Shown: positions 1 to 58,020 of the stretch, piece after piece | Layout of the letters: the number at the start of each line of letters is the position of its first letter | Position numbering within the stretch: position 1 is the stretch's first letter | NCBI GenBank assembly: GCA_045541795.1 | Contig: JAZQJV010000010.1 | Span: 72,333 to 136,332, forward strand | Length of the DNA stretch: 64,000 nucleotides | Source: Patescibacteria group bacterium | GTDB taxonomy: Bacteria > Patescibacteriota > Microgenomatia > UBA1400 > PJMF01 | Direction of reading: 5' to 3' | Notes under the pieces: model-generated | Database searches by the model: none | Told to the model about the DNA's origin: nothing | The model's input: the letters and a program-made list of their open reading frames with translations, nothing else | Program-made: the position numbers and the translations under genes

Positions 1-804
1 GGCCTCGCTGCCGGGGTAAAAAACCATCACCTTGCCATCTGGTACGGGTCTTGTGCTTTCTACATATTTACAATAGGCCACCAAATGATGCCAACCGCTA
101 AAGGTGGCAAAAAGAAATCCCGCCAAACCGTCTACATAACCACGGTGGCGCAAATAAATACTCCAAAAAGTACAAAAAGGTTTCCAAAAACAATACTTCC
201 ACAAATTCCAGCCATTTATCGGCACTTTTTGTTCGGCAAGCTGCATTGCTTTAAAACTCGTGTAGGTGTTAAACTTGCGCCAATAACTTTCTAAATCCGG
301 ATTAGCAAAATGCAACAAATGGCCATCAGCCGTCCCGATTTTTCCTTTTACTTTCATCTGTTCATGCACGTCTTTGCCGGGCAGATAAGCCTTACCTGCA
401 TAAAAAAGCCGGATCACGCTATCTGGATATTGCCCACCTTTTTGCAGCCAACGGCGCAAAAATAAATTTTTCCGCCGGATCTGCCACGCCGCGTATTTAT
501 CTGGTTTTTCGCGGTTTATCCGGATGACAAATTCCCGTAAACTGTTATCCACTACCTCATCCGCATCTAATTGTAAAATTACATCGCCGGCGGCGGCGTC
601 AATTGCCATTTGTTTATTGATGTGAAAGTTCGCTTTATTGGTAGTATTGATCACTCGTGCTCCAAAGCCTGCTGCAATCTCCACTGTTTTGTCGCTGGAC
701 TCTCCATCTACAATTACAATTTCATCTGCCCACTCACTCACGCTCGCTAAAGAATGAGCCAACGTTTTTTCTTCATTGTGGACTGCATACACGACACTGA
801 TCAT
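1..804 (-). CDS. Glycosyltransferase family 2 (polyprenol-phosphate sugar synthase-like); partial, C-terminus runs off the window start
   Basis: My own reverse-strand translation from the ATG (rc) at 802-804 reads MISVVYAVHNEEKTLAHSLASVSEWADEIVIVDGESSDKT...QLDADEVVD, with the GT2 DXD/DAD signature. It is not in the ORF track because no stop codon falls inside the window. Its start overlaps the stop of the downstream gene in an ATGA arrangement. Confidence 0.6.
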   Translation of the reverse strand, partial: MISVVYAVHNEEKTLAHSLASVSEWADEIVIVDGESSDKTVEIAAGFGARVINTTNKANFHINKQMAIDAAAGDVILQLDADEVVDNSLREFVIRINREKPDKYAAWQIRRKNLFLRRWLQKGGQYPDSVIRLFYAGKAYLPGKDVHEQMKVKGKIGTADGHLLHFANPDLESYWRKFNTYTSFKAMQLAEQKVPINGWNLWKYCFWKPFCTFWSIYLRHRGYVDGLAGFLFATFSGWHHLVAYCKYVESTRPVPDGKVMVFYPGSEA

Positions 805-2438
805 CTCACCCTTTCCCACGCCTGCGTTTCCTCATTATACCATATCACTTGCGAATAGCTACTATCATCAAAATCTAGATCACTAAAATGATACTGTAAC
901 AAATCGCTGCCAGCTTTTATGCCTGCCAGATCAGCATTTTCTCGTGAGAGTGTCGTCCAAAAAAGCTGAGGATCTAATTTTAAAAGCCACGCGAGTTTGA
1001 TATACTCATATTGTCTTTCCGCCGTCCGGACCAAAACCGGCCGGTTATTATCAAGCTCGCTCAAGACTTTTTCCATCCCCGTGTGATAAATATTCGTTTG
1101 GGGCAGCTCAGTAAAATACCGATAAACATACATTCCTGTTTCCGCCAGTTGTACGCCCACAATTACGCCCACCGCAATCAGTATGTACTTTTGCTTTATC
1201 TGTTTTTTTAACTTCCGAAATAAGTGACAAACGGTCACTGCGCTCATCACTGTCAAAAGATAAAAAAACTCTAAGCTCCGGGTAGCATGAGGACTATCAG
1301 TCGTAATCACGCTCGGCACCAGCGCGCCAAACAATACAAAGGCCAGCACTAAATACGGCGATGTCAAAAATGACCGCCAACTTTTCTTCCTCCAAGAGGT
1401 GGCCATATCACGTACCACCATTCCCAAAAAATAAAGCAGCGCCACATATATTATCACCGTTGTCATCAGCGTCAGATGGCCGCTACCAGCCAGTTGATGC
1501 CACGGATGAGTCCCGCCTCGCCACCAAAAACCAGGTGCCAAGCTCGAGAGAGTATTGCCGGCCAGCCGTCCGGCCAAATACACATATTTGCTTCCGGCAA
1601 ACGCCCGCAGCCATCCTGGTAAATTTTCCCGGTAAATCAAGTAAAAATGATGCACAGTGGGATCAGAAAAAAGCGTAATCCCGCCTTTTTGTGCCGTCAC
1701 CGGCAAAAGAATACTCCAGCACAAAATGACGCTCACGCTCATTGTCACAAGTAGCGGCAGCCACCACTGCCAGCCTCGCTGCCAACCGCACCAGACTACT
1801 ATTATTAATAGTACACTCGTGATCAAAAGCGGCGCATTATATGTCAAAAAACTTGCAACCAACAGCACAAAAATAGTCACGAGCTGCCACAACGTCCAGC
1901 TCTTTTGACTCCTCCACGCTTTTGCAACCAAATACACTGCCGCCACCCACAAGCACATGCCCACGTTTGCCTCCCAAGCTCCACGGCTATACCAAATAAA
2001 AATCGGATTAGCGCTCACCAATAATGCACTGATGAGCCCTGCAATTTTGCCATTTTTTTGTCCACCAAATAGCTGCCCCAGCGCATATGCCAAGATGATC
2101 AGCACCGTCCCAGAAATTACAGACGGCAGCCGTACCAACAAATCAGGTTTTATATACCGATCAAGGCCAAGGCGGTATAAGCCCACTAAAAGATATGGAT
2201 ACCCCGGCAATTTTTGGTCGCCAAAGCTTTCCAAAAAAATCGGCCACACCCGCCGCCACTCGTCCATCCCCGTGTGCGAGAGCAAATATGCATTATAAGC
2301 CAGCGCTGCTTCATCACGATTGAGTCCTGCCGGCAGCTCGCCCACTTGATGTAGGCGGATGATCAATCCCGCCATCACTATCAGCGCCAACAGAAATTTT
2401 TGCCAATAAGCCGCAAAAAATTGTCGCCATTTATTCAT
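801..2438 (-). CDS. GT-C fold membrane glycosyltransferase, PMT/ArnT-like (dolichyl- or polyprenyl-phosphate-sugar dependent)
   Basis: 545 aa with many TM segments. N-terminal loop motif LNRDEAALAYNAYLL...FGDQKLPGYPYLL, typical of the PMT_2/GT39/GT83 family. Confidence 0.7.
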   Translation of the reverse strand: MNKWRQFFAAYWQKFLLALIVMAGLIIRLHQVGELPAGLNRDEAALAYNAYLLSHTGMDEWRRVWPIFLESFGDQKLPGYPYLLVGLYRLGLDRYIKPDLLVRLPSVISGTVLIILAYALGQLFGGQKNGKIAGLISALLVSANPIFIWYSRGAWEANVGMCLWVAAVYLVAKAWRSQKSWTLWQLVTIFVLLVASFLTYNAPLLITSVLLIIVVWCGWQRGWQWWLPLLVTMSVSVILCWSILLPVTAQKGGITLFSDPTVHHFYLIYRENLPGWLRAFAGSKYVYLAGRLAGNTLSSLAPGFWWRGGTHPWHQLAGSGHLTLMTTVIIYVALLYFLGMVVRDMATSWRKKSWRSFLTSPYLVLAFVLFGALVPSVITTDSPHATRSLEFFYLLTVMSAVTVCHLFRKLKKQIKQKYILIAVGVIVGVQLAETGMYVYRYFTELPQTNIYHTGMEKVLSELDNNRPVLVRTAERQYEYIKLAWLLKLDPQLFWTTLSRENADLAGIKAGSDLLQYHFSDLDFDDSSYSQVIWYNEETQAWERVR

Positions 2439-4179
2439 GACTACTTTCTAGTGGCACCCAGTGCCCTACCGCGAGCACTGGTTTGCCACCTACATCCTCG
2501 ATCACTGCTGCTTCTGGCGTCGCTGTCAGCTGTGTCGATTCTGCCATCGTCAGCACAAAAAGTTGTTCCTTTTCTTCCCAACCCGGGCCAAACTTGATTT
2601 TATCTGGTGTATAAGTAATGTATTCAGCCTGATCATAGCCCTGTTCACCGGCTATCGCTTGCAAACTCGCCGGCGCGATCTGCCGATACCAAAAATAATA
2701 AACCGCCGGCCGCCCCAGCTCACGCGTCACGTACACCGGTAGCTGAGGATATTTTTCCTGCCACGCCGCCAATTCACGGTAAGCCGCCTCATATCCGTCT
2801 TGCCAGTCACCAGCAAAAGCGCGCGGATAATAGACGTGATAATAATAAAGCCAGGCTGCCAACATGCCAACGTAAATCAGCGTGACAACCATCACCAGCC
2901 ATGGCCGCCATCTTTTTCCCACCAAGTTCATTACTTCCACCCAGCCAGCAGCCACCACCATCAGCAGTAGCGGCAGCAATGTCAGCGTCCGCAGCAAATG
3001 CGGTGTCGCTCGAGTGAAGCTGGCCGGCAAGACCGCGATCACTAGCCAAAAAAGCAGCCACGCTAGCCGTTCTTGACGACGGCGCCAATTCTTACTTAAA
3101 TACACGACACCCAAAAACAGCGCGATCATTTCTACCGGATACAGCACACCAAAAAGCCCCACACTATGGCGGCGATTTACATCTCCATGGAAGAATAAAT
3201 AATCCCAAGTGAAATGATCGCCAAAATTTTGTAAAATCTGCCGCGCAAAAAACCAGTAGCGATGACACCACCACCGAGCCAATAAACCCTCGCCTCCCAG
3301 CTGCCGGCACTGATTACTCTGTTTGATAATCTCCACGTCACTAAAAATCGACGTTTCGCTAAAGCGATTTGTCAGTGAACGCTTACTATCTAATACAAAA
3401 GGCGTCAACGCCACCATCGCCAGTATCGACATTACACCTAGACTACGCCAGATCTTGCGCCATCGTTGTGGCGCCTCCCGCGCCAGCTTATGCCAACGCC
3501 ACCACAATAAATAAATGCCTGCCAGAGGGGCAATCACCCGCAAAGAGTGATAAGTATAAAAACTCAAAAGTAAACACACTTCACCACCTACAGCCGGCCA
3601 ATCAAACTTCGGCATAAATTTTTTTTCACTTTTTTCAGTTTTGCGGTCCGCTGAAGGATAAAGTAAATACACACCGCCCAAGAAAAAAGCCGTCGCCAAC
3701 ACTGTCTCAAAACCTACATGCCCCAAATGTATAAAACTCGGATTGATCGCCACCAAAAGCATCACTAAGTTTTCCCACCACCAATATTTATTTTTTAATT
3801 CTGGGAAAACTTTTCCCGCTAGTCTCCCAGCCAGCCACACGATCATGACACTTGCAAGCAAACTCGGCACTTTGACCGCCAAAAGCTGCGGCCCTATTAC
3901 CATCATGACTAAGGCCACCGCATAAAAATAACCACTAGGCTTGTAATCACCAAAACTCACCAGTGCGCTCGCCGGCAAAAAATTACCATGCATGTCGCGC
4001 GCGGTAGTCGCCAGTGACCAACCATCGTAAGCTAAAGCCATCTCATCCCAATAAACACTCGGCGGGACTTGGCCCAAACCCCACACGCGCAGCAAAAAAG
4101 CCACAAATAAAATCAAAATACTCAAATAAAAAGGATGCTGTCGTATTTTCCTCCACCAGTTAGCAGCTACCTTCATCAT
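2431..4179 (-). CDS. GT-C fold membrane glycosyltransferase, PMT/ArnT-like, with C-terminal soluble domain
   Basis: 582 aa. VYWDEMALAYDGWSL...FGDYKPSGYFYAV loop-1 DE motif, multi-TM N-terminal half, soluble C-terminal 150 aa. Paralog of 801-2438. Confidence 0.7.
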   Translation of the reverse strand: MMKVAANWWRKIRQHPFYLSILILFVAFLLRVWGLGQVPPSVYWDEMALAYDGWSLATTARDMHGNFLPASALVSFGDYKPSGYFYAVALVMMVIGPQLLAVKVPSLLASVMIVWLAGRLAGKVFPELKNKYWWWENLVMLLVAINPSFIHLGHVGFETVLATAFFLGGVYLLYPSADRKTEKSEKKFMPKFDWPAVGGEVCLLLSFYTYHSLRVIAPLAGIYLLWWRWHKLAREAPQRWRKIWRSLGVMSILAMVALTPFVLDSKRSLTNRFSETSIFSDVEIIKQSNQCRQLGGEGLLARWWCHRYWFFARQILQNFGDHFTWDYLFFHGDVNRRHSVGLFGVLYPVEMIALFLGVVYLSKNWRRRQERLAWLLFWLVIAVLPASFTRATPHLLRTLTLLPLLLMVVAAGWVEVMNLVGKRWRPWLVMVVTLIYVGMLAAWLYYYHVYYPRAFAGDWQDGYEAAYRELAAWQEKYPQLPVYVTRELGRPAVYYFWYRQIAPASLQAIAGEQGYDQAEYITYTPDKIKFGPGWEEKEQLFVLTMAESTQLTATPEAAVIEDVGGKPVLAVGHWVPLESSHE

Positions 4180-6887
4180 TCACTTTCTTCTAATTCTGTC
4201 TCCAACGTCGTGACAGGCGCCGTCTTCGTAATGCACCAAGCCAAATGATGCCACGGCCCAAAATAATAATTGTTGGTATGAGCACACTGACTAGCAATCA
4301 TCGCTTTCATATGTTCATCAATCTCCAGTGGCGAGTAAATTACTGCCGTCTTACTTTTTTGTAAGTGACTACTTGTCAGTTTACCTGTAAACATATATTT
4401 TTCCGAAAGCTTACCAAAGCGATAGGCTTCCGGGCTCAAATGCTCAGCCAGCAAAGCATAAATGTAAGGTTGTTCCAGACTGCTTGCAAAAATAATTTGA
4501 TCAAATTCACTATTTTTTACCGATAAATCAGCAAAAACATCCAGCAAATTTACCGCAAACAAATACGCGGCGTCCTTTTGCAACTCGCCAATCCGGCCAG
4601 CGCGTACCTGTTCACCAGTCGTGACTGTCACCTGCGACACCGGCGCAAAAATCTGCTGATAATGAACCCATGCTACCATCCATTCCAGAGTAATAATCAC
4701 CATCGTCATCATCACACAGCTTGGATAATACATCGCGCGCGCACGCCACCAGCGCCGCCACGCCACCAAAGCCAATACATCCAAAATGACCACACCTACC
4801 ACCACCGGCAGCGCTTGGTTACTATGCGGGATCTGATCAGTGATCGCTGCTGGGACCAGCCCACCAAAAAATAAAGCCAGGCCCAGTAAGGCAACTTTAC
4901 CATATTGCCGGCGCCAATCGGCAAAAATCACCACTGTCGCCAAAAGAATCAGCAGTAGCGGCAATTCTGCCCACCAGAGCACGCCAAAAGTTGCATCGCC
5001 ATGTCGCACGTTTGCCGCTTGCCGGCCGTAAACTTGCGCGTCAATCGTCGCTCCGCCCCAGAGGAAATCCGGACTCAAGTACTGTCCATAGTGCTGACTA
5101 AATCGTGACCATTTCTCACCCACGCTCAAGCTCTCATCGCTCAAAAAAGAAGAACTGCCGCGCGAAAGACCCAAGCCTTTACCAGTGAGCTGTCCGTCAC
5201 CGCAAACCCCACCCTGCCAGTGCGGCTGGCCGTCTACACTTTGTGACCACGCCAGCAAGGTAAATGGCCGCTCTGGCGCCACCTCACAAAAACTATCCTG
5301 GAGTAGGGGAGTAAGCAAAACCACACCGGCCGCCACTGGTGCCAGCAAAACCCGCCGGCACCGCCACAGTCGACGGCCAAAAAGCACCGCCACCGCCAGC
5401 AAAATCAAAAACACCGTAATTTTGGCCGAGTGATAGCTATAAAGCGCCGCCACCAAAGCCAGCATACTCCCCACAAGCGGCCCGCACCACCATTTATCCG
5501 CCCAGTAATTACCATTGTCATCAGTCTCACTGGCCCCAAACTTTGCCAACCCATAAATGGCCGCCAACTGGAAAACAAGTGCCAGCCCACTTTCAAATCC
5601 CAGATGTGAAAAATGGAAATGCCACCAAGAAAGCGTCAGTAACGCGCCTGCCAAAGCCGCATACGTCAGGTGATGCTTATTTTTTTCGCGCAAAAGCAAA
5701 TCCGTCAATTTCATCACCAACCACACGCTCATCACACCGGCCAGCGCAAAAGGCAAACGCACAGCCCAAATCTGCCGACCAAGCATCAGCTGGAAAGCAC
5801 CCACCAAATACACCGCCAACGGCGCTTTATAATCACCAAAAGACCGAAACGTCACCGGTAAAAAATTCAGCCATTCATCACGTCTGGTCTCCCACACGCT
5901 GATACCATTATAAGCCAGCGCCGCCTCATCTACTGTCAGTCCGCGCGGCATCTCTAACAGACCCAAACGAGTGACCAGTGCTGCTATCAAGACGACAGCC
6001 CATAAGCGTAGTGCCGGGAATTGCTTGAGCTGCCAATACCAGTAAAAAAACAAAAATTGCCATTTCTGCCGTCCACGGGCGTGTTTCCAAGCGAACTTCG
6101 TGCCGCCCCGCCAGCTCATCGCCGCAATTTTCTCCTCACCAAAAACATCTTTGTTTGTGGTCTCATGTACGTGCTCCACCACGGCTTTGTGGCAGTAAAG
6201 CACCTGCCAGCCGCGCGCTCGCGCTGAGTATGAAATATCTATATCTTCCCAATAAGCCGGGTAAAACTTAGTGTCAAACCCGCCCAAAAGCCGCCACTTG
6301 GTGATGTCAAAAAGACTGCTGCCACCGCACGCCCACGCCGTCTCGCCCGAATGATCCAGATTATCATCGCGCCGGTGCCAAAATCTACCCTTACTCCACC
6401 AAAGCTGATTACGCCCGCTTACCTGGCTGCCATGATTGACGTCAATTTCGCACGCGCTCACCGCAAAAACACTGTCGCCATTTTGCATCATCGCCCACAA
6501 ATTGTCTCGCACTCCCGCTCTGGGGCGCACGTCATTATTGAGCAACAAAAAATAGTCATTGTCTATCAGCGCTACTGTATCATTGACATTACGCGCAAAC
6601 CGCCCACACCGGTAGCGCTGAAAAAAAGAAATGGTAATCGGCTTGCCGTGCTCACTAATCCGCGCCCGGTACAACTGCCCCGCCGCACTCACATCTGGGA
6701 TCAGCTGTAAATCATACTTTTGGCGGAAATAGCGTAAATTTTCCAAATTGCCCGCCGCATCCTCACTGATGAGTAGTTCATCTCCGGCTTGCATCTGCGC
6801 CAGCACACTCGGCAAATTTTTCTCCAGCAAATGTTTTCCATTATAGGTAGGGATTAAAAAAGTAATTGCCGTGTGTTTTTTTGCCAT
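4176..6887 (-). CDS. Bifunctional fusion: N-terminal GT2 domain fused to C-terminal PMT/ArnT-like GT-C membrane domain
   Basis: N-terminus MAKKHTAITFLIPTYNGK...LLLNNDVRP...YWEDID gives a GT-A/GT2 fold. From about residue 320, LTVDEAALAYNGISVWETRRDEWLNFLPVTFRSFGDYKAPLAVYLV plus about 10 TM helices give a GT-C fold. I prefer the start at the internal Met at 6887, which leaves 1 nt before the upstream GT4 stop codon at 6889-6891. The longest ORF start at 6938 would overlap the GT4 gene by 50 nt. Confidence 0.65.
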   Translation of the reverse strand: MAKKHTAITFLIPTYNGKHLLEKNLPSVLAQMQAGDELLISEDAAGNLENLRYFRQKYDLQLIPDVSAAGQLYRARISEHGKPITISFFQRYRCGRFARNVNDTVALIDNDYFLLLNNDVRPRAGVRDNLWAMMQNGDSVFAVSACEIDVNHGSQVSGRNQLWWSKGRFWHRRDDNLDHSGETAWACGGSSLFDITKWRLLGGFDTKFYPAYWEDIDISYSARARGWQVLYCHKAVVEHVHETTNKDVFGEEKIAAMSWRGGTKFAWKHARGRQKWQFLFFYWYWQLKQFPALRLWAVVLIAALVTRLGLLEMPRGLTVDEAALAYNGISVWETRRDEWLNFLPVTFRSFGDYKAPLAVYLVGAFQLMLGRQIWAVRLPFALAGVMSVWLVMKLTDLLLREKNKHHLTYAALAGALLTLSWWHFHFSHLGFESGLALVFQLAAIYGLAKFGASETDDNGNYWADKWWCGPLVGSMLALVAALYSYHSAKITVFLILLAVAVLFGRRLWRCRRVLLAPVAAGVVLLTPLLQDSFCEVAPERPFTLLAWSQSVDGQPHWQGGVCGDGQLTGKGLGLSRGSSSFLSDESLSVGEKWSRFSQHYGQYLSPDFLWGGATIDAQVYGRQAANVRHGDATFGVLWWAELPLLLILLATVVIFADWRRQYGKVALLGLALFFGGLVPAAITDQIPHSNQALPVVVGVVILDVLALVAWRRWWRARAMYYPSCVMMTMVIITLEWMVAWVHYQQIFAPVSQVTVTTGEQVRAGRIGELQKDAAYLFAVNLLDVFADLSVKNSEFDQIIFASSLEQPYIYALLAEHLSPEAYRFGKLSEKYMFTGKLTSSHLQKSKTAVIYSPLEIDEHMKAMIASQCAHTNNYYFGPWHHLAWCITKTAPVTTLETELEESE

Positions 6888-6888
6888 G

Positions 6889-7983
6889 CTACATTTCCAA
6901 CATTTGCCAACATCTTTTTTCAAAGTTGGCCAAATCAAATTTCTCGGCCCGCTCGCGCACCTGCAGACTCACCTCGCGGCGCATCTTCTCACTTTTGATA
7001 AATTTGCGCGTGATTTTGAGGCACTCAGCTTCTGTGAGCCAACCAAGATACCGCAGTTTATTGCCCAAAATTTCTTTTTGTCCACCCTTGGCGATCACCA
7101 CTGGCACGCAACCTGCTGCCATCGCTTCTACGGTAGAAATACCGAAGTGTTCCATTTTTTCTGGGTGGACGTTTTCGTCATCCGTCGCGCCAGTAGCGTG
7201 CCAATAAATCGCGGCGCGCGCGTAATAATCCAAAAGTTTTGCCCGGTCCACATCAGTAATTATTTCCACCGGCAAATCCCTAGCTATCGCTTGCACTTTT
7301 TGCAGATAATCCATACTCTCCACCGAGCCAATCAGTACCAATTTCCAGCCAGCCAGCAGCTGCGGATTTCTATCCCGCAAACGGCGGAAAGCTTCCACCA
7401 GCAAATGTTGATTTTTTGTATGCAAACTATCAAAAAAACGGCCTACATTCAAAATAATTTTTTCTTTCTCTACCGTCTTTTCTTGCAAAGCCTTCACGTC
7501 TACTCCTGGCTGGCATACCAAATCCACCTTGATCTGCCAAAATTTTTCCACTACTTTTTTGGTAAAAAGTGAATTCGTATTGATTACCTGGAAACGTTTA
7601 AATTTGGCTTTTTCCCGGCCTGAGCGCGGAGCTAGGGTCAGCGGCACCTGGATATGCATGATGTTACGCCTGGCCAAAGAAAAAAAAGCACTACCATCCG
7701 TCACGAAGTAAAGACAATCATACCCTCTCGTCCACCACAATTTCCTGAGCCGTCGGCCTTTCATGCCCAAAGGTGTCGCCACAAAATGTAATTTATCCAG
7801 TTTCCGGCCCAAAAAGTGTTCGTACTTTTTTTTGATCGCGTCCAAATCCGTCTTGATGCGCCCGGCGCAAATAGCGATCGTCACGTCATGTTTGCTGGCA
7901 TAAACAAGCGCTGTATCCAGCAAATACTTCTCTCCACCTCCAAAATGATCTGGTAAGTATGGTGAATAAAAAGCTATTTTCAT
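6889..7983 (-). CDS. Glycosyltransferase family 4 (GT-B fold, retaining)
   Basis: 364 aa. C-terminal EX7E-type motif HFGISTVEAMAAGCVPVV. N-terminal MKIAFYSPYLPDHFGGGEKY is typical of GT4. Confidence 0.75.
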   Translation of the reverse strand: MKIAFYSPYLPDHFGGGEKYLLDTALVYASKHDVTIAICAGRIKTDLDAIKKKYEHFLGRKLDKLHFVATPLGMKGRRLRKLWWTRGYDCLYFVTDGSAFFSLARRNIMHIQVPLTLAPRSGREKAKFKRFQVINTNSLFTKKVVEKFWQIKVDLVCQPGVDVKALQEKTVEKEKIILNVGRFFDSLHTKNQHLLVEAFRRLRDRNPQLLAGWKLVLIGSVESMDYLQKVQAIARDLPVEIITDVDRAKLLDYYARAAIYWHATGATDDENVHPEKMEHFGISTVEAMAAGCVPVVIAKGGQKEILGNKLRYLGWLTEAECLKITRKFIKSEKMRREVSLQVRERAEKFDLANFEKRCWQMLEM

Positions 7984-8000
7984 AAATTTTCTGTATTATA

Positions 8001-8825
8001 CTATACTTTTCCTGGTTTTAATGAAGCAATCACTTGCTGTTCTAGGTCCTCATATTTTTCACTTATCGTGGGTCGCTGCTGCAATTCCCAGATCTGGATA
8101 AAAACAAACGCCCGGTTGCAGGCTTGTACCAGTGCTTCCACAAAACCCACCATCCCGTCGCGGTATCCTTTTTGCCGACAATAACGCCGATAAAATTCCA
8201 TCACCATTTTGCGCAAGATCGTCCCGGGCGTGACCAGCGGCCAGCCGTCGGCGACGTAAGCCTCCGCCTCCTTGATCGTCCAGCGGCTACTTTTAGCTAA
8301 ATTAGCCGCCGTATCCCGGTGGGTAAAATGTAGTAAGGGATTACTCAAATCTCCTGTTTTACCTTCATATATAGGACTTTCATGAATAGCACCTTTCCAG
8401 CCAGTCAGCGCCCCGCGCCGGAAAATCCTAGTCACGTAGTCTTCTTGCCAGCCGCCAGCCGTCATCGCCTCACCATAATGATAATCTTGCCGGCGCGCTC
8501 TCCAAGCACTAATTTGCGGATCAGCCAGCTTGTCGCGCATCTCCGCCAGCAGGGCACCATTTACCCGCTCGTCAGCATCCAAGTAAAAAACCCATTCAGT
8601 CTGTACCTCAGCCAAAAACTCACTCCGGATCGCAGCGAAATCCTCACTAGCAGTTTCCCGCCACGAAGCACCATTTTCCCGGGCCACCTGCTCGCTTTCA
8701 TCCCGGCAATGATTGCCGACCACCCACACAGCCTGCGCCCAAAAAAGCTGAGGCAAAAGATGGCGCAAATTGGCGGCCTCATCACGGGCGATAATGATCA
8801 GTGTCACTGACAATTGATTCGTCAT
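8001..8825 (-). CDS. Glycosyltransferase family 2
   Basis: 274 aa with VTLIIIARDEAANL and YLDADERV (DXD) motifs. The extended -10 TGGTATAAT (rc of 8833-8841) lies 7 nt from the start codon. Confidence 0.75.
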   Translation of the reverse strand: MTNQLSVTLIIIARDEAANLRHLLPQLFWAQAVWVVGNHCRDESEQVARENGASWRETASEDFAAIRSEFLAEVQTEWVFYLDADERVNGALLAEMRDKLADPQISAWRARRQDYHYGEAMTAGGWQEDYVTRIFRRGALTGWKGAIHESPIYEGKTGDLSNPLLHFTHRDTAANLAKSSRWTIKEAEAYVADGWPLVTPGTILRKMVMEFYRRYCRQKGYRDGMVGFVEALVQACNRAFVFIQIWELQQRPTISEKYEDLEQQVIASLKPGKV

Positions 8826-8912
8826 GTGGGTATTATACCACAGGTGCCAACGAGTCCCAAACTACAAACTAACTAATGACAGTTGGTAATAATTAGTTAC
8901 CAGCAATTTATA

Positions 8913-9789: not shown

Positions 9790-10887
9790 ATGTCAGAGCC
9801 GATACTAAAAAAAATAAACTTTCAAACTATCACTATTTTTAGTATTGTCCTTGTAGTTATTGTTGCAGCCGCCGGAGTGTGGCAAAATATCAACTTGTCT
9901 CATCAACAATCACCAGCAAATGTCAGTCATGAAAATGTCGATGCCGACGATTTCGTTTATCAAGATCCCACTCTCACCACAAGCAATGAGCTATTAGAAG
10001 AAATCACACCGCAAAACTTCAACGAACAGCTCGCCTACAGCTGGGCCTGGCATCAATATTATGCCAGCACCAGTCTTCCAGAAGCTAAAAGTAGGACCAT
10101 AACTGAGCTAGCAAATGCCAAAAAAATGTTTGACGCTGGTGATCAAAATGCCACCTTAAACTGTTTTTTTATGTGGGATATCATCGGTGATGAAACATTA
10201 GATGCTGACAGCCGCAATCTTGCCCGTGAACTTTGTCATAACGGCAAGCAAAACGTTGTTTACGACTCTAGTTTCAGCCAATACTGGGAGCGCCTCCAAA
10301 AAGGACAGGAACAAATCGAAAGCGAACAAGGAGCATTCTGGTACTATTACCCAGATCGTGTCGTCGAGGATTATACCTTAGAATTAGGTGAAAAATATCA
10401 AAATTACATCTCCGGCAATGCAAACATCACACCAGAACAAGATAACACCGCTGCCGCTAGACAGTTGAAAGACTATGCTCTCGTGATGATTGATAAGTCA
10501 GATCTCGCTTACGGCGTCGCTAATCCAAACTACACCAAAGACCTAAGACTCAAAAATGAAAGTCAGCTGCAATTTATGGCCCTGGGCGAAAAACTCTTTT
10601 CTTGGTATATTGCTTACGGTGACCAGAATTTTGATACTGAAAGCAAGTGTTTACTGCGTGAAGCGTTGACACTTTATTATGATCGATTCACTTCCGCCTT
10701 GGAAGAAAGTTTCCTCACTCGCCTACCAATATGTAATGAACCATCAACTTACTTAGTACAACTTGTAAATCGCGGGCATTATGATAAAATAGAAATTAAT
10801 CCTGTCTTGGTATTGGAAGATGTCCGAGCAGGTGAGGCAACAGATAATTACGAAAAAATAATTATAGCGGGACTACTAAGTCAATGA
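9790..10887 (+). CDS. Cassette 1 protein B: N-terminally anchored hypothetical protein, paralog of 20226-21713
   Basis: 365 aa. TM segment TITIFSIVLVVIVAAAGVW. The block AYSWAWHQYY aligns with AYTWAHHQYY in the 509-aa protein. Confidence 0.6.
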   Translation: MSEPILKKINFQTITIFSIVLVVIVAAAGVWQNINLSHQQSPANVSHENVDADDFVYQDPTLTTSNELLEEITPQNFNEQLAYSWAWHQYYASTSLPEAKSRTITELANAKKMFDAGDQNATLNCFFMWDIIGDETLDADSRNLARELCHNGKQNVVYDSSFSQYWERLQKGQEQIESEQGAFWYYYPDRVVEDYTLELGEKYQNYISGNANITPEQDNTAAARQLKDYALVMIDKSDLAYGVANPNYTKDLRLKNESQLQFMALGEKLFSWYIAYGDQNFDTESKCLLREALTLYYDRFTSALEESFLTRLPICNEPSTYLVQLVNRGHYDKIEINPVLVLEDVRAGEATDNYEKIIIAGLLSQ

Positions 10888-13800
10888 GGAAGGCAAATAA
10901 AACTTACCAGCTCTTCATCAAAGTCGTATTGCCGATTATCGCTTTTGTGTTTATCAGCTTTTTTGCCGCCAAAACCATACTTCAAACTGTCGATGCTAAA
11001 GGCGGGAGCGGACCAGGCAGTGCTCTCGATCCTCAAAATCCAAGCGGACCGATTACTTGTACCACAGGAGATGGACATGGAAATCCTAGCGAATGGGATG
11101 CTGTCACTCCAGCTTGGCGGCCTAGACTAAAAGAAGTCATCCAAAAATGTCGAAATTCTGATGGATACTATAACTATGATCAGCAATGGCTATTTGTGCG
11201 CAATGCAATCGTCTATCCGTATTCAGAATACAAGTCTACTAGCTATTGGGACGTAATCCCTGATAAGATTGCTCCTAGTGCCAGCGTCTACGGCAAAGAA
11301 ACTGGCTACAGAATGCATTGGTTTTACACCACCAATAATTCAGGAAGCTGTAGCGATCATAAGTATTGGAATCTCTGGATCCGTGATTTTGACTGTGATG
11401 GTGTCACTCACCAATGTAGTGAGCTAAATAACGGCAAAAACGTCTTTAAATCTGGACCAGATATCTTCAACGAAGTTTGTGAGCGAGCTTGTAATTATTA
11501 TGAACAGCTCACCAATATGGCATGTAAAAACGTCGTCAGTCAAAACTGGTCGCCAATGGGCACACTTCCCGAAGACCTCGCAAAAAGTGCTCTCACATTT
11601 GACACCACCAATCTAGAAGGAATAATGGATGATGCTGCTTCATATGCAACACTCATCAACAAAGAATTATCAGCATACACTGAATACATTATGAACTATC
11701 TCACTCCAGATAGCAAGTTTATGGTAATCCCAGATAGCGCCAACAGTCTCGAAACTGCACGTTCACAACTTGCTAACCTTGATGCAGTGATCAATACTAT
11801 CCGTAACACACATACAAATTACTCTACTCAGGCTCAGCAAAAAATCAATTCGGCCAATAGTGTGATTAGCTCGCTCACTAGTCAACTCTCCAGTGTTGAT
11901 TATAACGTCAACACTCAGTGTGGGTTTTATGCATCCAACAGGTGCTATACTTCAGGCAATCTGGACAGTAGTTGTAGTGATGCTAGGACTTATCGCTCAC
12001 AACTTGCCAACAGGCGTAGCCAGTATTACAGCTTATTAGATAGTCTCTCCACCAGTACCAGCACTATTGAATATTATGAAAGCGAAGTCAAAAAGCTTCA
12101 ATCTTACCTCAATACATCGATGCAAAACTGTGCCAGCAAAACTAAAAGCGGCTATGGATGTGACTATGCGACAGCCTGTCATCAATACATAAGTATCGAA
12201 CAAACTATAGATGGAGCAAAAGATAGTCTACAAGAAGCCAAAGAACAGTTGTGGGCTGTCAAAACCGATAAAGTTGATTTTGACGACAATACTGAAGCAA
12301 AACTGCGTGAATACGCTAAACAATTTACTCGAGCTTATAACAGCTATAAAGTCGCCGCCGGTAATACCAAAATAGACTGGACGTTTGGTTACTGTTCCGC
12401 CGACGGCTCCGGTGATAGCCCAATGTGTAATAATATCAAGATCATGCAAGGCTGTCTCGAGTTTGTCGGCAAAGCAGAAGCCCAGCTCGCTTCAGAAGGA
12501 AAAGTCAATGCTGTCACCAAAGGGTCACTAAGCGTACATATTGAATCACACAGTTGCGATACCCGCTCAGACTTCATCGACGTCAACTGTTCCATTAAGG
12601 GCTGTTATCAGACTAGAGAGTGGTGCCGTAACATCAATCAATTCTACGTTGAACCAGATGAAAAATGTCCATTGGGAGGTAATGGCCGGATCGCTTACGT
12701 GAATTCTATCCAAAATCCTGGTAGTACTCTGCGATGCCGTAAATGCAATACCTCATTTACTACCTGTGAAGAAGCAGCTAAGTACGCATGGCTTTATGAT
12801 TCCAGCGAACCAAAGGGAAGCGGCAAAAACAATGAAGTTAAAAACTGGGTAGAAGGTTACTACGACAGCAGTTTTGATGCTAAGCGTTATTGGGCCATCC
12901 GTACCAATTGTGAAGCCGACGAAGATCATCAGATCAAAAAATGGATCCAAGATGAAGACGGTCATGCACCCATCCAATGTACGGTCGCTTGTGTACAAAA
13001 CTGTGACGAGATCCGCGATCCCGATACTCAGCAATACATGGAAGAACCAGACCGTGAACCTTTCGTTAATAGTTCTAGCAAATATTATCATACCAGCAGC
13101 TGTTATCGCAAAGGCTGGAATCCAGTTATCAAAGTCGTCGAAGACATTCACGGAATTCAGACCACATGTATTGGCGGCTGTCTCGAGCCTTGCGGAGATG
13201 TACGTCAGTTACAATGGGGTGCAGTACGCAACTATACAGTGAACGGTTATACCTATAAAGACTATGCTCAAAGCACTCGAGATAAATATTTCTTACCAGA
13301 AGACACCAATTGTACCGCTGCTCAATTAGCAACCAAGACTAGCGTCAGCATTCGCGATCACTACAATCGGAGTTACAGCAAGAAATGCTACTCTGACAAA
13401 TGTCGTAAAGACTGTAAATCCATTTGTGAAGCCAGAGGGTGGAAGACTTCAGACTATGACTGCGGATCCGGTATACCCAACTACGCCAGCGTCGACGGCT
13501 GTACTTGTGTAGCAAACTGTTCTGGGGATGCTTGTCGCAATCAAGGTTACTGGCCAGCCAGTCACGTCTGTGCACCAAATGAAGAATCACTCGGCACAGA
13601 GACCATCATTGATAAAAACGGTCACTCAATTGTTTGTCACAAAGGATGCAAAGCCAAAACTCCAGGTGACGAACTTAAGTGTGCTCCAGGCGTACCAGTA
13701 TATAATGGCAGCAGTGTCACGGTTAATGGTGTGACACAAACCGATTTTGTCGGTGATGTTTATATCAACAGTGATGAAACCTTCTATAATGAGCGCAATG

Positions 13801-15644: not shown

Positions 15645-15651
15645 AAAAAAT

Positions 15652-15751
15652 ATTGAGTATTTATTGTGCACGATAAATGATTTTATACCGGTGCATCAAT
15701 ATTTTTAAAATACCTTAATTTTATTAGCAGACAATGGCCGCGACTGCTAAT
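15652..15751 (+). repeat. Copy B of the roughly 100-bp element, forming a direct repeat with copy A and flanking cassette 1
   Basis: ATTGAGTATTTATTGT... near-palindrome ATTTATTGTGCACGATAAAT, then hairpin ATTAGCAG-N13-CTGCTAAT at 15723-15751. Confidence 0.7.
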
Positions 15752-15761
15752 TTCTCCGCAC

Positions 15762-16949
15762 TCACATCCTTCCCGTCACGTACAGCAAACCGTTTTCGTC
15801 TCGCCGTCCCCAATCACCAGTCCGATACCAGCCGCCCTGCAATACTGCCGCTGTGCGCCCGCGGTCTTGATAATACCCACTCATCACTTGCGGACCGCGC
15901 ACCCAAATCTCACCCTCATTTTCATTGCTGCCGCCCACAAATTTCACTTCTATATTTGCCAGCGCTCGGCCAACGCTCGCCGACACACCTAAGTGACGGT
16001 AACCGCTAGCAATGCCCGGCGCGCATTCCGTGCAACCGTATGTGGCCAGCACTTCTATCCCGGCCAAAGCCCACTTCTCTTGTATACTCACCGGTACTGC
16101 CTCGCCGCCACAGATGATCTGATTAAGCGCCCCACCAAAATACTGCCGCCAGCTATTCTGGTCGCCGTGCTCACTGCTGGCTCTTTCCAATTTGCCTGTC
16201 AATTTTTGCAGTATCAGCGTGGGCATTACTACTACCGTCGGCCGAGCAGCCTGCAATAAGCCTTCCGGATGTCGCCAATCCAGCGGAAAAAATATCTGCG
16301 CTCCGCAACTGCACCACCACAAAAGGACTGACAGTCCCAAAATATGCTCACCCGGCAGCCACGAGAATACCGCGCGATCACCACGAAAATCATGCAAAAA
16401 TTGCCCGCCCCAAATCACGGCCAACACATTTTTTTGCGTGAGGGCCACCACTTTGGGCTGACCCGTAGTGCCAGAAGTGGTGATCAAGACAGCCAAATCA
16501 TCACCTTGAGGCTGGAAGCACGTGAGCCTCTGCCGCGCTTCAGGCCGAGCAGGGGAGTGCTCTACTGTCTGGATTACCGTATCCGGCTGGCACTTGTCAC
16601 TATCACTTACCAAGCAAACCGCTTGGCGGAGCCGCCAGGCCGCCAAAATGCTCACCAACCACCAGTAACCAGGCTCCAGCCGCAAGCTCACTTTTTGCGG
16701 CCGTTCGGGATCAAATTTTTCCTGCCAAGCTGCAGCCGTGTTTTCTACGTCGGCCACCAGCCCGTCATACGTCACTGTCCTCGTTTTCCCGTCCTCATCA
16801 GTGTAAACGCCAGCCAGCTGCCCACCGTATTCTTGCCGTAAAAAATCCAAAAACTCACTAATCTGTACATGTGCGCGCGGACAAAAAGCACGCTGTGGAT
16901 AATCACCAAGATTTACCCCAGGCGCTAGCCCCTCATACACCATGCTCAT
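15762..16949 (-). pseudogene. AMP-dependent synthetase/ligase (acyl-CoA ligase family), 3'-truncated; C-terminal subdomain missing
   Basis: TSGTTGQPK (A3 motif) and YRTGD (A8 motif) are present. The ORF ends at ...YVTGRM, directly before the conserved GRxDDxIK region. The stop codon lies 11 nt from the copy B hairpin. Confidence 0.55.
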
Positions 16950-16952
16950 ATC

Positions 16953-18874: not shown

Positions 18875-18993
18875 ATATCTTTCTATTGTTCGTTCCTTTA
18901 TCTTTCTGCCGTGACATCAACTTTTTCTGTATTAACTATGTCACAACTGTTTACATTATATCACATATAGGCTATTTTGTCAAGACCCAATTT

Positions 18994-19002
18994 CTTATTC
19001 CC
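18994..19002 (+). promoter_or_regulatory. Extended -10 element TGGTATAAT, about 16 nt upstream of the LCP start codon
   Basis: TGGTATAAT at 18994-19002; ATG at 19019. Confidence 0.5.
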
Positions 19003-19018
19003 GTGGTATAATACGCCT

Positions 19019-20191
19019 ATGCTAAAAAAGTGGTACTTCTGGCTGCTAATGAGCGTCGTTTTTTTCTTGACGGCCTTCCTTACGGTGGTTATGGGTCTAT
19101 TTTTTGCCCATCCGGTAGTCATCATCGGCTCAGGCGAAAAACTCATCCAGCTAGAACTCGCACCGGTAGCCGAAGACCCGCTCAGACCTGTCCACATCTT
19201 GCTGCTCGGGCATGGTGGCGGCAGTCATTCTGGCGGCAGCCTGGCAGATACTATCATTTTAGCGCAGATCATCCCCAAAAAACGCCAAATCAACCTCTTT
19301 AATATCCCCCGTGATTTATGGGTGGAATTACCATTTCCCGCCCGTGATGGGGGAGAGGAACTCATGCACGCCAAGGTCAATACCACTCTCGCCATCGGCA
19401 GCAGTGAGCGCCAATACACTTGGCGTAGTGAGCAATTTAAAGGCGAGCACGGCGGCGGCGCCCTTGCCAAATACGTTATCGGCCAGATTACGGACTTGCC
19501 TATAGATTATTATGTGGCCGTGGATTTTAGTGGTTTTGTGAAAGTTATAGAGACTATTGCCGGTAAACAGGGTCTCAAAATTGACGTGCCGTATTCCTTT
19601 GTAGACGAATTTTACCCGATAGAAGGACTAGAAGACGATCCATGCGGGTTTAGTGAGGAAGACATCGCCACAATGTCGGCTACGCTCACCGGCTATGAGC
19701 TGGAAAAACAGTTCACCTGTCGCTACGAAAGGCTAGAATTTACCCGGGGTACCCAGCTAATCGCCCCCGACCAACTGCTTAAATTTGTCCGTTCTCGTCA
19801 TTCTGGCACTCATGGCGGGGATTTTGGCCGCTCGCAGCGCCAACAAGTAGTAATTGAAGCCCTCAAACAAAAAATTTTCTCGGCCAGCATGATCGCCAAA
19901 GTCCCTGAGCTCATCCGTCAAGTGCTGCGCCTGGTGCGCACCGACCTTGACTATGAAATGCTCAGCTCTGTGCTTTTGGCTTACGACGGGATTGAAGATT
20001 TTCAGATCACCAGTTTTGTCTTGACCAATCAGAATTTATTGGCAGACGGACGCAGTAGTGATGGCCAGTATGTCTTGCGGCCACGGCTGGGCTTGGATGA
20101 TTACCGCCAGATCCAAGATCTGGTCAGCTGGACACTCGAGGCCACTGGCGAAGCCACGCTAGACGATTTCATGTCACTAATCGGTGAATAA
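19019..20191 (+). CDS. LytR-CpsA-Psr (LCP) family cell-envelope glycopolymer transferase
   Basis: N-terminal TM segment. LGHGGGSH...LADTIILAQI and FVRSRHSGTHGGDFGRSQRQQVVIEAL match LCP-family motifs. I prefer the start at the Met after the promoter, not the ORF-track start at 18977. Confidence 0.7.
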   Translation: MLKKWYFWLLMSVVFFLTAFLTVVMGLFFAHPVVIIGSGEKLIQLELAPVAEDPLRPVHILLLGHGGGSHSGGSLADTIILAQIIPKKRQINLFNIPRDLWVELPFPARDGGEELMHAKVNTTLAIGSSERQYTWRSEQFKGEHGGGALAKYVIGQITDLPIDYYVAVDFSGFVKVIETIAGKQGLKIDVPYSFVDEFYPIEGLEDDPCGFSEEDIATMSATLTGYELEKQFTCRYERLEFTRGTQLIAPDQLLKFVRSRHSGTHGGDFGRSQRQQVVIEALKQKIFSASMIAKVPELIRQVLRLVRTDLDYEMLSSVLLAYDGIEDFQITSFVLTNQNLLADGRSSDGQYVLRPRLGLDDYRQIQDLVSWTLEATGEATLDDFMSLIGE

Positions 20192-20198
20192 TTGCCAC

Positions 20199-20227
20199 TT
20201 GACAAGCTTCCTCCGGCATGATTTAAT
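20199..20227 (+). promoter_or_regulatory. Putative sigma70-like promoter inside the 3' end of the LCP gene: TTGACA, 17-nt spacer, TTTAAT
   Basis: TTGACA at 20199-20204 and TTTAAT at 20222-20227, upstream of the cassette 2 protein B start. Confidence 0.35.
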
Positions 20228-30577: not shown

Positions 30578-31495
30578 TCAAATCGCCACCTGCTTGCCCC
30601 AGCGTCTCGTCAAAAATCTAGTAGCCGCTAGTTTTTCTACCGGGGACCCATGACGCCACAGCCTCCAGGCTAGACGCAAAGTCCGCAGCTTTTCGCGCCA
30701 CTGGCCATAAGTAAAAAAGAAAAGAAGACGATTGCGCGTCTGGTAAAAAGTCTGTAAGTCACTACCGGCGCCGGCCGTAGAACTGCCGTTTTTGTGCCAA
30801 ATCACCGCCTCGGGCACCCAGCCGATCTGGAAACCATGAGCCACCAGCCGTCTGCTCAAATCACAATCCTCAAAGTAAAGAAAATAGCGTTCATCAAAAA
30901 CGCCCACACTTGCTAGGACTTCACGCCTGATCAAAAAACAGCAACCAGTGGCAAAATCCACCGTCTTTTCGAGAGAAAACTGTCCTCGATCTACCTCATC
31001 CACGCCGATATGCAGCGTCAACAAATTATTCCAGTCGATACTGCCACCCGCATACCAGATCACTTTGCCTTGATCTGCTTGAGCGTAACTGTCTTGATGG
31101 AACTCACAGCCGGGAGCAAAATACATCTTAGGCACAGCCACGCCCCAATCATGATGTCTGGCAAGCGCGCGATAAAGTCTCCCCAAAAATGGCGGATCTA
31201 TCAATGTATCTGAGTTAAGCAGCAAAAAGTAATCCGGATCAAAATCACGGCTAGCCGCCTCAAAGCCTAGATTATTGCCGCCCGTAAAACCCAAATTAGA
31301 GTCAGAACGCACAATCTGCACGTCATGGATAAATTTGTCATCTTTTTTGAGAGAAAACGGCTCTTTGGAGGCATTGTCCACCACGAACACTTTAACGCTC
31401 AAACCAGCATCATCAAGGCTATCCAGCGATGCCAAAGTCGCCCGCGTATCTTCATCGGTATTGTAATGGACTATAATAATCGCCACCTTATCCAT
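30578..31495 (-). CDS. Glycosyltransferase family 2 (WbbL/rhamnosyltransferase-like)
   Basis: VAIIIVHYNTDEDT, VVDNAS and LLLNSDTLI motifs. Confidence 0.7.
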   Translation of the reverse strand: MDKVAIIIVHYNTDEDTRATLASLDSLDDAGLSVKVFVVDNASKEPFSLKKDDKFIHDVQIVRSDSNLGFTGGNNLGFEAASRDFDPDYFLLLNSDTLIDPPFLGRLYRALARHHDWGVAVPKMYFAPGCEFHQDSYAQADQGKVIWYAGGSIDWNNLLTLHIGVDEVDRGQFSLEKTVDFATGCCFLIRREVLASVGVFDERYFLYFEDCDLSRRLVAHGFQIGWVPEAVIWHKNGSSTAGAGSDLQTFYQTRNRLLFFFTYGQWREKLRTLRLAWRLWRHGSPVEKLAATRFLTRRWGKQVAI

Positions 31496-55777: not shown

Positions 55778-55798
55778 TACCCACATTAACAATTTAAG

Positions 55799-55871
55799 GG
55801 CCGTTGGCACAGTTGGTAGCGCGCTTCTATGGCATAGAAGAGGTCAGGGGTTCGACTCCCCTACGGTCCAC
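55799..55871 (+). tRNA. tRNA-Ala (anticodon GGC); CCA not encoded
   Basis: Manually folded cloverleaf. 7-bp acceptor stem with the G3:U70 Ala identity pair. Anticodon loop aTGGCAt. T-arm AGGGG-TTCGACT-CCCCT. Discriminator A73. Confidence 0.85.
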
Positions 55872-55982
55872 AACTTATTCCCGCAAAAATTGCAAGAATA
55901 ATTTCCCCATAATTAATTACCGCATAATTACCGCAAAGTGAATTTTCGCTCCTGCCCCGCCGCTATAAGAGTAGAGGAGAGC

Positions 55983-57749: not shown

Positions 57750-58020
57750 AATTACTATATCAAACTATATCAATTTTAGACCAAATAAGAGTTTTCCACG
57801 GGGTGGAAAACTATATCAAACTATATCATTTCTCCAAACAAGAGCCTGTCACCAGGCAGAAGGCCATCAAGAACCCATCGATTCACACATCAACTTCTGG
57901 CCGTAAATCCGTATATTCTTGTTCGGGTTTTAATCGCTAAATTACTATAATTTACTATATCAAACTATATCATTTTCCATAGTGTCACTATATCAAACTA
58001 TATCATTTTTGTCACATTAT
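57750..58020. repeat. Iteron array: 19-mer ACTATATCAAACTATATCA (itself a doubled CTATATCA 8-mer) in 4 copies, flanking the 21-bp palindrome GTTTTCCAC-ggg-GTGGAAAAC (57791-57811)
   Basis: Copies at 57754-57772, 57811-57828, 57964-57982 and 57997-58015. Lies inside a roughly 2-kb ORF-free AT-rich region (56919-58877). Confidence 0.7.

Follow-up and report, generated by a model that had tools for sequence, protein, structure and literature searches.

The 64-kb stretch of Patescibacteria DNA analyzed here (contig JAZQJV010000010.1; the whole stretch is referred to as the window) opens with a cluster of six glycosyltransferase (GT) genes, designated g1 to g6, whose possible role in building a cell-envelope glycan is the subject of this report. 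The six open reading frames (ORFs) fill positions 1–8825, all lie on the minus strand, and have overlapping or abutting ends, as a first-pass annotation of this DNA had described; its domain calls for the six genes are likewise correct. The gene order given in that annotation is right in content but follows plus-strand coordinates, whereas transcription proceeds from g6 (GT2) through g5 (GT4), the GT2::GT-C fusion g4, and the GT-C genes g3 and g2 to g1 (GT2) (Table 1).

Table 1. Glycosyltransferase cluster, putative promoter, displaced glycosyltransferase, LCP gene, and giant-protein cassettes of the window
Feature	Position	Strand	Description
g6	8001..8825	-	274 residues; soluble GT2 (GT-A fold), GmaR/SunS-like subfamily, DADE motif; first operon gene
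g5	6889..7983	-	364 residues; GT4 (GT-B fold) cytoplasmic glycosyltransferase; Pfam Glycos_transf_1, 68 bits
g4	4176..6887 (6938 as listed)	-	903 residues; cytoplasmic GT2 (~residues 1-245) plus ArnT-like GT-C (~290-903)
g3	2431..4179	-	582 residues; GT-C paralog, polytopic membrane domain plus C-terminal alpha/beta domain
g2	801..2438	-	545 residues; GT-C paralog, last GT-C gene ahead of g1; PMT_2
g1	1..804	-	N-terminal 268 residues of GmaR/SunS-like GT2; open at window edge, no stop
Promoter-like site	8832..8860	-	TTGGGA, 17-nt spacer, TG-extended TATAAT; directly upstream of g6 start codon
Cassette A1-B1-C1	9079-15644		C1 at 10884-15644
LCP (LytR-CpsA-Psr) gene	18977..20191	+	Pfam LytR_cpsA_psr, E 1e-28; cassette 2 directly after
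Cassette 2 (B2, C2, D2)	within 18977-28035	same as LCP gene	overlapping/abutting ends; C2 (1892 residues) at 21710-27388
Rhamnosyltransferase/GlfT1-like GT2	30578..31495	-	305 residues; NCBIfam TIGR01556, E 1e-13, GlfT1, 2e-7; Pfam match

With respect to gene boundaries, the overlaps measure 3 nt between g1 and g2 (802–804 against 801–803), 8 nt between g2 and g3, and 4 nt between g3 and g4, and the remaining spacings are 1 nt (g4–g5) and 17 nt (g5–g6). The start of g4 was placed at the ATG at 6887 rather than at the listed TTG at 6938 because the resulting 903 residues equal the length of the homologs. The promoter-like site ahead of g6 scores 10/12, which ranks it with the top four sigma-70-like sites of the region, and it is the sole one of the four with an extended -10 TG; it is a consensus match only, and the number of such sites overall does not exceed the shuffled expectation. 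Given the co-directional, overlapping genes and this site, the six genes likely constitute one operon, in line with the earlier single-operon proposal. The operon extends past position 1, as g1 is cut by the window edge and relatives carry a further gene after it.

The three GT-C proteins, namely g2, g3, and the C-terminal half of g4 (g4C), are true paralogs that share 28–30% identity in mutual BLASTP comparisons (E 8e-15 to 2e-28), with g2 being 28% identical to g3 and 30% identical to the GT-C half of g4. Their GT-C status follows from these comparisons, from the PMT_2 and PMT matches of their homologs, and from the ArnT matches of AlphaFold models. Specifically, g2 just exceeds the Pfam gathering score for PMT_2 (26.8 vs 26.1 bits), g3 itself has no Pfam match, and none of the window GT-C proteins matches PF02366, the PMT N-terminal domain, in Pfam. 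NCBIfam returned no ArnT, TIGR03663 (Agl23), or other family match for g2 and g3, and no TIGR03663 match for g4. A collection of 5.8 billion proteins holds 81 homologs of g3, and the named sources are Patescibacteria or Microgenomates. Among 58 g3 homologs scanned with Pfam, 39 match PMT_2, 21 match PMT (PF02366), and none contains a PMT_4TMC domain. The NCBIfam models found in the same 58 proteins are TIGR03663 (23, best E 1e-17), archaeal STT3 (7), ArnT (4), and Pmt (2), the matches to the ArnT model PRK13279 being weak (best E 5.7e-6).

Structural comparisons point in a consistent direction. Single-sequence searches of the PDB with g2, g3, and g4 gave nothing meaningful, and the sole match below E 0.1 in a profile search was ArnT (5ezm, E 0.026). 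The AlphaFold model of g3 is of high predicted quality (predicted local distance difference test [pLDDT] score 94.6, predicted template-modeling [pTM] score 0.94), and its significant Foldseek matches in the PDB are GT-C enzymes without exception. ArnT ranks best (E 4e-8, template-modeling [TM] scores 0.48/0.51) and is followed by AglB, STT3, AftA, ALG12, and Pmt4. The g4 model (pLDDT 91.2) likewise has ArnT as the top match of its GT-C half (5f15, E 2e-9).

Conserved motifs accompany this fold. The g3 protein contains D45-E46, FGDYK (76–80), E158, YH (210–211), and R397, and the GT-C half of g4 contains D320-E321, FGDYK (350–354), E432, YH (485–486), and PHSNQ (687–691); the corresponding acidic loop motif in g2 is D42-E43. 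Across the g3 and g4 families, the D/E-E pair of the first loop, FGDxK, the Glu, YH..K/R, and PH..R/Q show little or no variation. In 58/58 g3 homologs, residue 46 is Glu and residue 45 either Asp or Glu, and both D320 and E321 are invariant in 65/65 g4 homologs. The D/E-E loop would lie outside the membrane, as the first extracytoplasmic loop, and from their motifs the GT-C proteins are probably active enzymes. The R-to-Q change in the PHSNQ motif of g4 was considered as a sign of an inactive enzyme and rejected, as Gln is present at this site in 16/65 family members.

Taken together, the Pfam, NCBIfam, Foldseek, and motif results support a broad placement only: g2, g3, and g4C are ArnT-like members of the PMT_2/COG1807 group that are assignable to neither PMT, ArnT, oligosaccharyltransferase (OST), nor Agl23. 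The first-pass description of three ArnT/PMT_2-like paralogs is thus borne out by the mutual BLASTP results, the Pfam matches of the homologs, and the folds. Membership in PMT proper is contradicted by the lack of PMT_4TMC in any member and by the scarcity of Pmt model matches. The profile hidden Markov model comparison of PMT_2 with ArnT/GT83 that had been suggested as a check put g2 just above the PMT_2 gathering score and yielded no firm family, ArnT included.

The cytoplasmic GT2 enzymes were found to differ from what had been predicted for them. Pfam identifies Glycos_transf_2 in g1 (67 bits) and Glyco_tranf_2_3 at the N-terminus of g4 (32.7 bits); the Glycos_transf_2 match of g6 is below threshold (17 bits), and NCBIfam gives g6 no family-level match. 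The g1 and g6 proteins are themselves paralogs (26% identity, E 1e-16). Family profiles were built for g1 (A3) and g6 (A5), from 30 orthologs each, and for the g4 GT2 domain (A4). GmaR, the flagellin O-GlcNAc transferase of Listeria, is the best match for both A3 (E 1.2e-25) and A5 (E 1.5e-22), followed in both cases by the peptide S-glycosyltransferases SunS and ThuS (~1e-14; SunS against A5, 6e-14). Chondroitin synthase is best for A4 (4e-25), and by fold (Foldseek) this half of g4 resembles ppGalNAc-T2 and chitin synthases. DPMS, GtrB, and ArnC align to the GT2 profiles only over the first ~100–120 positions, which form the generic nucleotide-binding half. The region of DPMS similarity in the g4 GT2 domain is limited to positions 4–123, the match of PpgS to g1 covers residues 4–54 only (E 0.004), and no GtrB-type C-terminal transmembrane hairpin is present in the cluster GT2s. 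None of the four GT2 domains resembles a polyprenol-phosphate sugar synthase. The first-pass view of these GT2s as synthases of the Ppm1/ArnC type accordingly gives way to GmaR/SunS and chondroitin synthase/ppGalNAc-T relationships.

Fusions are common among these enzymes. In its closest relatives, loci L005 and L082, the g1 ortholog is 74–82% identical to the window protein; that of L005 (74%) is a 611-residue protein with GT2 and Glycos_transf_1 domains, and that of L082 has 600 residues. The g1 fragment is therefore probably the start of a GT2+GT4 fusion of ~600–612 residues. In relatives, g1 is followed by a membrane protein of ~545–585 residues, and a related family of ~520 residues found elsewhere weakly matches DUF6057. 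Some genomes (P0165, P0166, P0168, and P0175) join the GT4 protein g5 to the GT2 domain of g4, and the GT2::GT-C fusion seen in g4 occurs in at least 80 protein clusters. Joined as they are in GT2::GT-C, GT4+GT2, and GT2+GT4 combinations, the cytoplasmic and membrane enzymes appear to belong to one pathway.

The conservation of the cluster was assessed with a scan for g3 relatives, taking one genome per species, which gave 134 relatives; 80 loci were fetched with 10-kb flanks and compared by ORF-level BLAST. Most of the 80 share a co-directional order that consists of a GT2 (~300 residues), a rhamnosyltransferase-like GT2 (~305 residues), g6, g5, g4N, g4C, g3 (with or without a second g3), g2, and g1, and the downstream end is typically a GT4 followed by a membrane protein of ~520–580 residues. 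Almost all GT ORFs in these loci (529/544) are co-directional. The g6 gene is conserved in 61 loci and neighbors g5 in 41. For g4, 32 loci encode the two halves separately and 11 encode them as a fusion. Tandem GT-C genes number from 1 to 7 per locus (mean 3.9). The GT-C that follows g4N has g4C as its best window match in 24/32 cases, and the GT-C that precedes g1 has g2 in 28/44. This position-specific orthology suggests distinct sequential roles for the paralogs.

Further genes recur around the conserved core. Within 10 kb, a Wzx-type flippase (Polysacc_synt) is found in 25 of the 80 loci and a sugar epimerase/dehydratase in 34, and other neighbors include YfhO-, GT87-, and DUF6057-like proteins and other GT-C-like membrane proteins. 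Small GT2s of 217–287 residues that resemble DPM1, PpgS, or AglJ are found within or close to the cluster in 36 loci. Four of these were checked and gave full-length matches to PpgS, AglJ, or Dol-P-hexose transferase models (for PpgS, 2–217 of 226 positions), and no DPM1/PpgS-like small GT2 is present in the 64-kb window. Single-linkage clustering of the locus ORFs merged all GT families via fusions and served only to flag conserved neighbors; the set probably includes spurious entries among its long antisense ORFs. Overall, the cluster is an old, widely conserved operon of Microgenomates/Patescibacteria that is not special to the source genome. Metagenome-assembled genomes (MAGs) with the cluster are often titled 'uncultured Pseudomonadales' or 'Gammaproteobacteria', with one 'Methylococcaceae' and one 'Limisphaerales'. 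These titles are probably taxonomic mislabels or reflect mis-binned contigs, since the cluster occurs in MAGs of Patescibacteria, Microgenomates, Pacebacteria, Woesebacteria, and Gottesmanbacteria.

Two further genes of the window have their counterparts at the upstream end of related clusters. One is the LCP gene, whose product is 59% identical to the LCP protein of L005, the closest genome-level relative. In L005 the order is penicillin-binding protein (PBP), PDDEXK nuclease, a gene of ~300 residues, LCP, and then g6 through g1, with the LCP gene ending 37 bp before g6. L003 shares with L005 a co-oriented LCP ortholog as the gene immediately preceding g6, and LCP genes are found within 10 kb in 8 of the 80 loci. 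In the window, an inversion separates the GT block from the LCP gene, and cassettes of giant-protein genes sit at both junctions. The second is the rhamnosyltransferase/GlfT1-like GT2, which is displaced ~22 kb from the cluster and adjoins a class A PBP. Its ortholog sits just upstream of g6 in many relatives, homologs are present in 42/80 loci, and it is 44% identical to the in-cluster gene of locus L083.

The giant proteins encoded by these cassettes had been regarded as Ser/Thr/Asn-rich. Their Ser+Thr content is mildly raised (15–17% vs ~11% background), but C1 and C2 are better described as Cys-rich, with 78 and 91 Cys residues, and contain neither mucin-like nor Ser/Thr-rich tracts. The two proteins have no Pfam domain and are 28% identical over ~1200 residues, with many Cys invariant. 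D2 and A1 are homologous, and locus L082 has a cassette with D/A-like, B-like, and C-like genes. Relatives are otherwise exceedingly rare: a search of the 5.8 billion proteins with C1 gave two matches only, the query and a relative with 79% identity, and a metagenome scan for relatives of the giant protein found none. None of the 80 related loci has a homolog of the cassette genes, and the only two ORFs of at least 1000 residues in these loci are not Cys-rich. Between the two cassettes, at 15762–17813, lie genes for an AMP-binding-domain protein (395 residues, matching the Pfam model over its C-terminal two-thirds only) and a PD-(D/E)XK nuclease, both of which are conserved in L081, L082, or L005.

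The cluster has a cassette as its direct neighbor in the window, in L081 (same species, ~96% nucleotide identity, with the divergent layout of the window), and in L082 (64% identity in g4), where the cassette is co-directional with the cluster and ends 69 bp upstream of g6. The association of cassette and cluster is therefore real but confined to one small clade, the source strain and two close relatives. As the cluster is conserved without cassettes in most of the 80 loci and C1 is nearly without relatives, the cluster long predates the giant proteins, and cassette adjacency is best read as a clade-specific rearrangement and not as the reason the cluster exists. Viewed from the cluster side, the expected co-occurrence of GT-C paralogs with cassettes is not seen, given that loci with 1–7 GT-C genes lack cassette homologs; co-occurrence was assessed from the glycosyltransferase side alone because relatives of the giant proteins are nearly absent from the searches. 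The notion that the cluster is special to the source genome or its giant proteins fails on the same evidence.

Comparison of the window with L081 reveals sharp differences in conservation between genes. At the amino-acid level, g6, g5, g4, g3, and the AMP-binding gene are 94–99% identical, whereas the figures for C1, B1, and A1 are 79%, 57%, and 60%, respectively (L081 741–7328 compared with the first cassette of the window). This hypervariability of A1-B1-C1 looks like diversifying selection or cassette exchange acting on giant Cys-rich proteins. Nucleotide homology between the two strains ends at position 2423, at the g3/g2 junction (2423–2438), where L081 contains an extra g3-like GT-C gene (14450–15808; 37% identity to g3). 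The GT-C complement thus differs between near-identical strains.

In terms of function, these observations are most consistent with a two-stage operon for cell-envelope glycan assembly, in which cytoplasmic GT-A/GT-B steps are followed by extracytoplasmic GT-C steps, a reading to which we assign an even chance of being correct. We infer the donor, acceptor, topology, and product of the pathway as follows. During the first stage, g6, g5, the g4 GT2 domain, g1, and the displaced GT2, which would be soluble or peripheral enzymes using nucleotide sugars, may build or extend a carrier-lipid-linked glycan at the inner membrane face. After flipping, the GT-C half of g4 and then g3 and g2 would act outside the membrane, with each GT-C using polyprenyl-phosphate-sugar donors to add a sugar or linkage of its own, as their fold and motifs suggest. 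The donor synthase would be encoded outside the window, and many relatives have a DPM1/PpgS-like GT2 in or near the cluster. The product is most likely a wall-attached or membrane-anchored glycopolymer, by analogy with mycobacterial arabinogalactan assembly or with the decoration of rhamnopolysaccharides in Gram-positive bacteria, and LCP-mediated attachment to the wall is its most likely fate. Gene content, folds, conserved order, paralog orthology, fusions, invariant motifs, and the Wzx, DPM1-like, and LCP neighbors all support this model. Several observations weigh against it, however. An initiating phosphoglycosyltransferase, a flippase, and a polyprenyl-phosphate sugar synthase were all absent from the 64-kb window, which covers one side of the cluster, and no initiating phosphoglycosyltransferase was identified in five annotated neighborhoods of more distant relatives. 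LCP genes are adjacent in just eight of the related loci, and the TM scores to ArnT reach only ~0.5. In addition, the solved enzymes closest to g1 and g6 are GmaR and SunS, which glycosylate proteins or peptides rather than lipid-linked glycans, and the curated family to which the GT-C proteins come nearest, Agl23, has flippase activity (PMC11182771).

The kinship with GmaR and SunS bears directly on two proposals that place the sugars on proteins. One is the original suggestion of a dedicated O-glycosylation system, with Ppm1/Pmt-like logic, acting on the giant secreted proteins encoded alongside (C1 and C2 with their partners). Cluster and cassette are direct neighbors in the window and in L081, the 69-bp gap in L082 would permit co-transcription, cassette 2 directly follows the LCP gene, and both the cassettes and the GT-C gene count vary between two strains. 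These adjacencies, in three genomes and after the LCP gene, keep a link between glycan machinery and giant proteins possible within the small clade. Nonetheless, we consider a dedicated system very improbable: the cluster is widespread and kept in most of the 80 loci without cassette homologs, the gene after LCP in L005 is g6 and no cassette is present there, and C1 is represented by two matches among 5.8 billion proteins with no metagenome relatives. The giant proteins are, moreover, Cys-rich and free of Ser/Thr-rich tracts, the cluster and window lack a Ppm1-type synthase, and the GT-C proteins fail PMT-specific features. The other proposal is a more general O-glycosylation of surface proteins, in which the GT-C paralogs would move polyprenyl-phosphate sugars onto type IV pilins, S-layer, or other wall proteins; TfpW, a pilin arabinosyltransferase, is a case for comparison here beside bacterial Pmt. 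The Pfam PMT and PMT_2 matches of the homologs, the conserved DE loop motif, and type IV pilus genes near the cluster in locus L086 (~27 kb off in the window) agree with such an activity, as do the GmaR/SunS-like g1 and g6. It seems unlikely to us all the same, given the absence of PMT_4TMC, a Pmt model match in just 2/58 homologs, and an architecture with a C-terminal soluble domain and a best fold match that are ArnT-like. Up to seven GT-C genes, 6–7 cytoplasmic GTs, and Wzx also better fit a complex glycan than a single-sugar modification.

Translocation, rather than transfer, is the activity at issue in a further alternative, whereby one or more GT-C paralogs, particularly g4C, would mainly flip lipid-linked sugars, with lipid loading falling to the fused GT2 on the pattern of Agl22/Agl23. 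TIGR03663 is the NCBIfam model with the most matches in the g3 family, nearly all loci have the GT2 and GT-C halves either as one fusion or side by side, and no dedicated small flippase is seen in the window. Purified Agl23 itself flips lipid-linked glycans and shows flippase rather than transferase activity (PMC11182771). The g4 GT2 is nevertheless unlike DPM1/Agl22, being closest to chondroitin synthase and ppGalNAc-T, the catalytic-type acidic GT-C motifs are strictly conserved as for transferases, and the window proteins do not match TIGR03663, which together make a translocator quite improbable. A bolder idea combines the g4 fusion and the strain-variable GT-C paralogs into a self-contained module, with carrier-lipid loading, translocation, and sugar transfer outside the cell all performed by one polypeptide. 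The swap or loss of single paralogs between near-identical strains would then rewrite a surface glycan code, which in this clade would decorate or anchor the hypervariable giant Cys-rich proteins and govern host attachment or phage evasion in these episymbiotic bacteria; this we regard as a long shot. Two-stage envelope-glycan assembly is thus the reading we retain.

Patescibacteria (the candidate phyla radiation, CPR) are ultra-small, mostly uncultured, and attached to other cells, and their envelope chemistry is essentially uncharacterized. A cluster of ~10 genes found across Microgenomates-type lineages therefore represents a concrete candidate pathway for their major surface glycan. Our literature search found no description of the cluster, its fusions, or the tandem GT-C array that varies between strains. 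Both the families of enzymes and the two-stage scheme are already well known, and the cluster is best viewed as an uncharacterized variant and not as a new principle; the adjacency of the giant cassettes, being limited to one small clade, should not be taken for a dedicated system.

Elsewhere in the window, a 779-residue HerA/TraG/VirD4-like ATPase (DUF87, TrwB_AAD_bind, TraG-D_C) is encoded at 44055–46394 and adjoins genes for a sugar epimerase/dehydratase (43034–44077) and a lactate/malate dehydrogenase. A tRNA-Ala gene (55798–55871) is immediately followed by a tyrosine integrase gene (55983–56918, minus strand), and G+C falls here to 0.40–0.43; this region (55798–60000) may be an integrated mobile element.

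With respect to known systems, the ArnC/ArnT pair (GT2 plus GT83), which modifies lipid A with aminoarabinose, is the nearest in structure. ArnT aligns with g3 and g4C at TM ~0.5 on the ArnT length, has the same combination of polytopic membrane domain and C-terminal soluble domain, and places its KPP region opposite the D-x-K of FGDYK. Sequence identity is just 11–13%, however, and the cluster has several tandem paralogs where the lipid A system has one enzyme. The GT2s of the cluster are also of another kind, as they lack a transmembrane hairpin, are GmaR/SunS- or ppGalNAc-T-like, and include no ArnC-type enzyme (ArnC against the g1 profile gives E 0.0025 over the N-terminal half only); no other arn-family domains were found among the window ORFs scanned by Pfam, which excluded those from 58878 to 63549. 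Actinobacterial Ppm1/Pmt (GT39) shares the GT-C fold, the DE motif in the first extracytoplasmic loop, and the PMT/PMT_2 matches seen in many homologs. The cluster proteins differ in that they are without PMT_4TMC and have no Ppm1-like synthase in the cluster or window. They also carry a C-terminal soluble domain, which to our knowledge bacterial Pmt lacks.

The pairing of a GT2 with a polytopic GT-C for extracytoplasmic decoration is shared with the three-component systems (GtrA/B/C, CsbB/GtcA/YfhO, and GacI/J/K/L), which decorate O-antigen, teichoic acids, and rhamnopolysaccharides, and YfhO-family proteins and DPM1-like GT2s are present in related loci. The window GT2s, unlike GtrB, have no C-terminal hairpin, and their GtrB match ends at the N-terminal half; no GtrA-like flippase was seen, and the gene set of the cluster is far larger. 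Archaeal Agl22/Agl23, which functions in Dol-P-hexose synthesis and flipping, similarly pairs a GT2 with a GT-C-like protein, and the TIGR03663 model is matched by 23/58 g3 homologs. The window proteins depart from it in having no TIGR03663 match, a fused GT2 that is not Agl22/DPM1-like, and acidic catalytic-type motifs that are kept. Finally, mycobacterial arabinogalactan/lipoarabinomannan (LAM) assembly (WbbL and GlfT; AftA-D, Emb, PimE, and Mpt; Lcp1) likewise combines rhamnosyltransferase/GlfT1-like GT2s in the cytoplasm with several non-redundant GT-Cs outside. Parallels extend to the LCP gene at the cluster boundary in L005 and L003, AftA among the Foldseek matches, and a GT87-like protein in relatives. 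The GT-Cs of the cluster are tandem paralogs of one family and not members of several CAZy families, and the likeness to mycobacterial assembly is one of logic rather than specific orthology.

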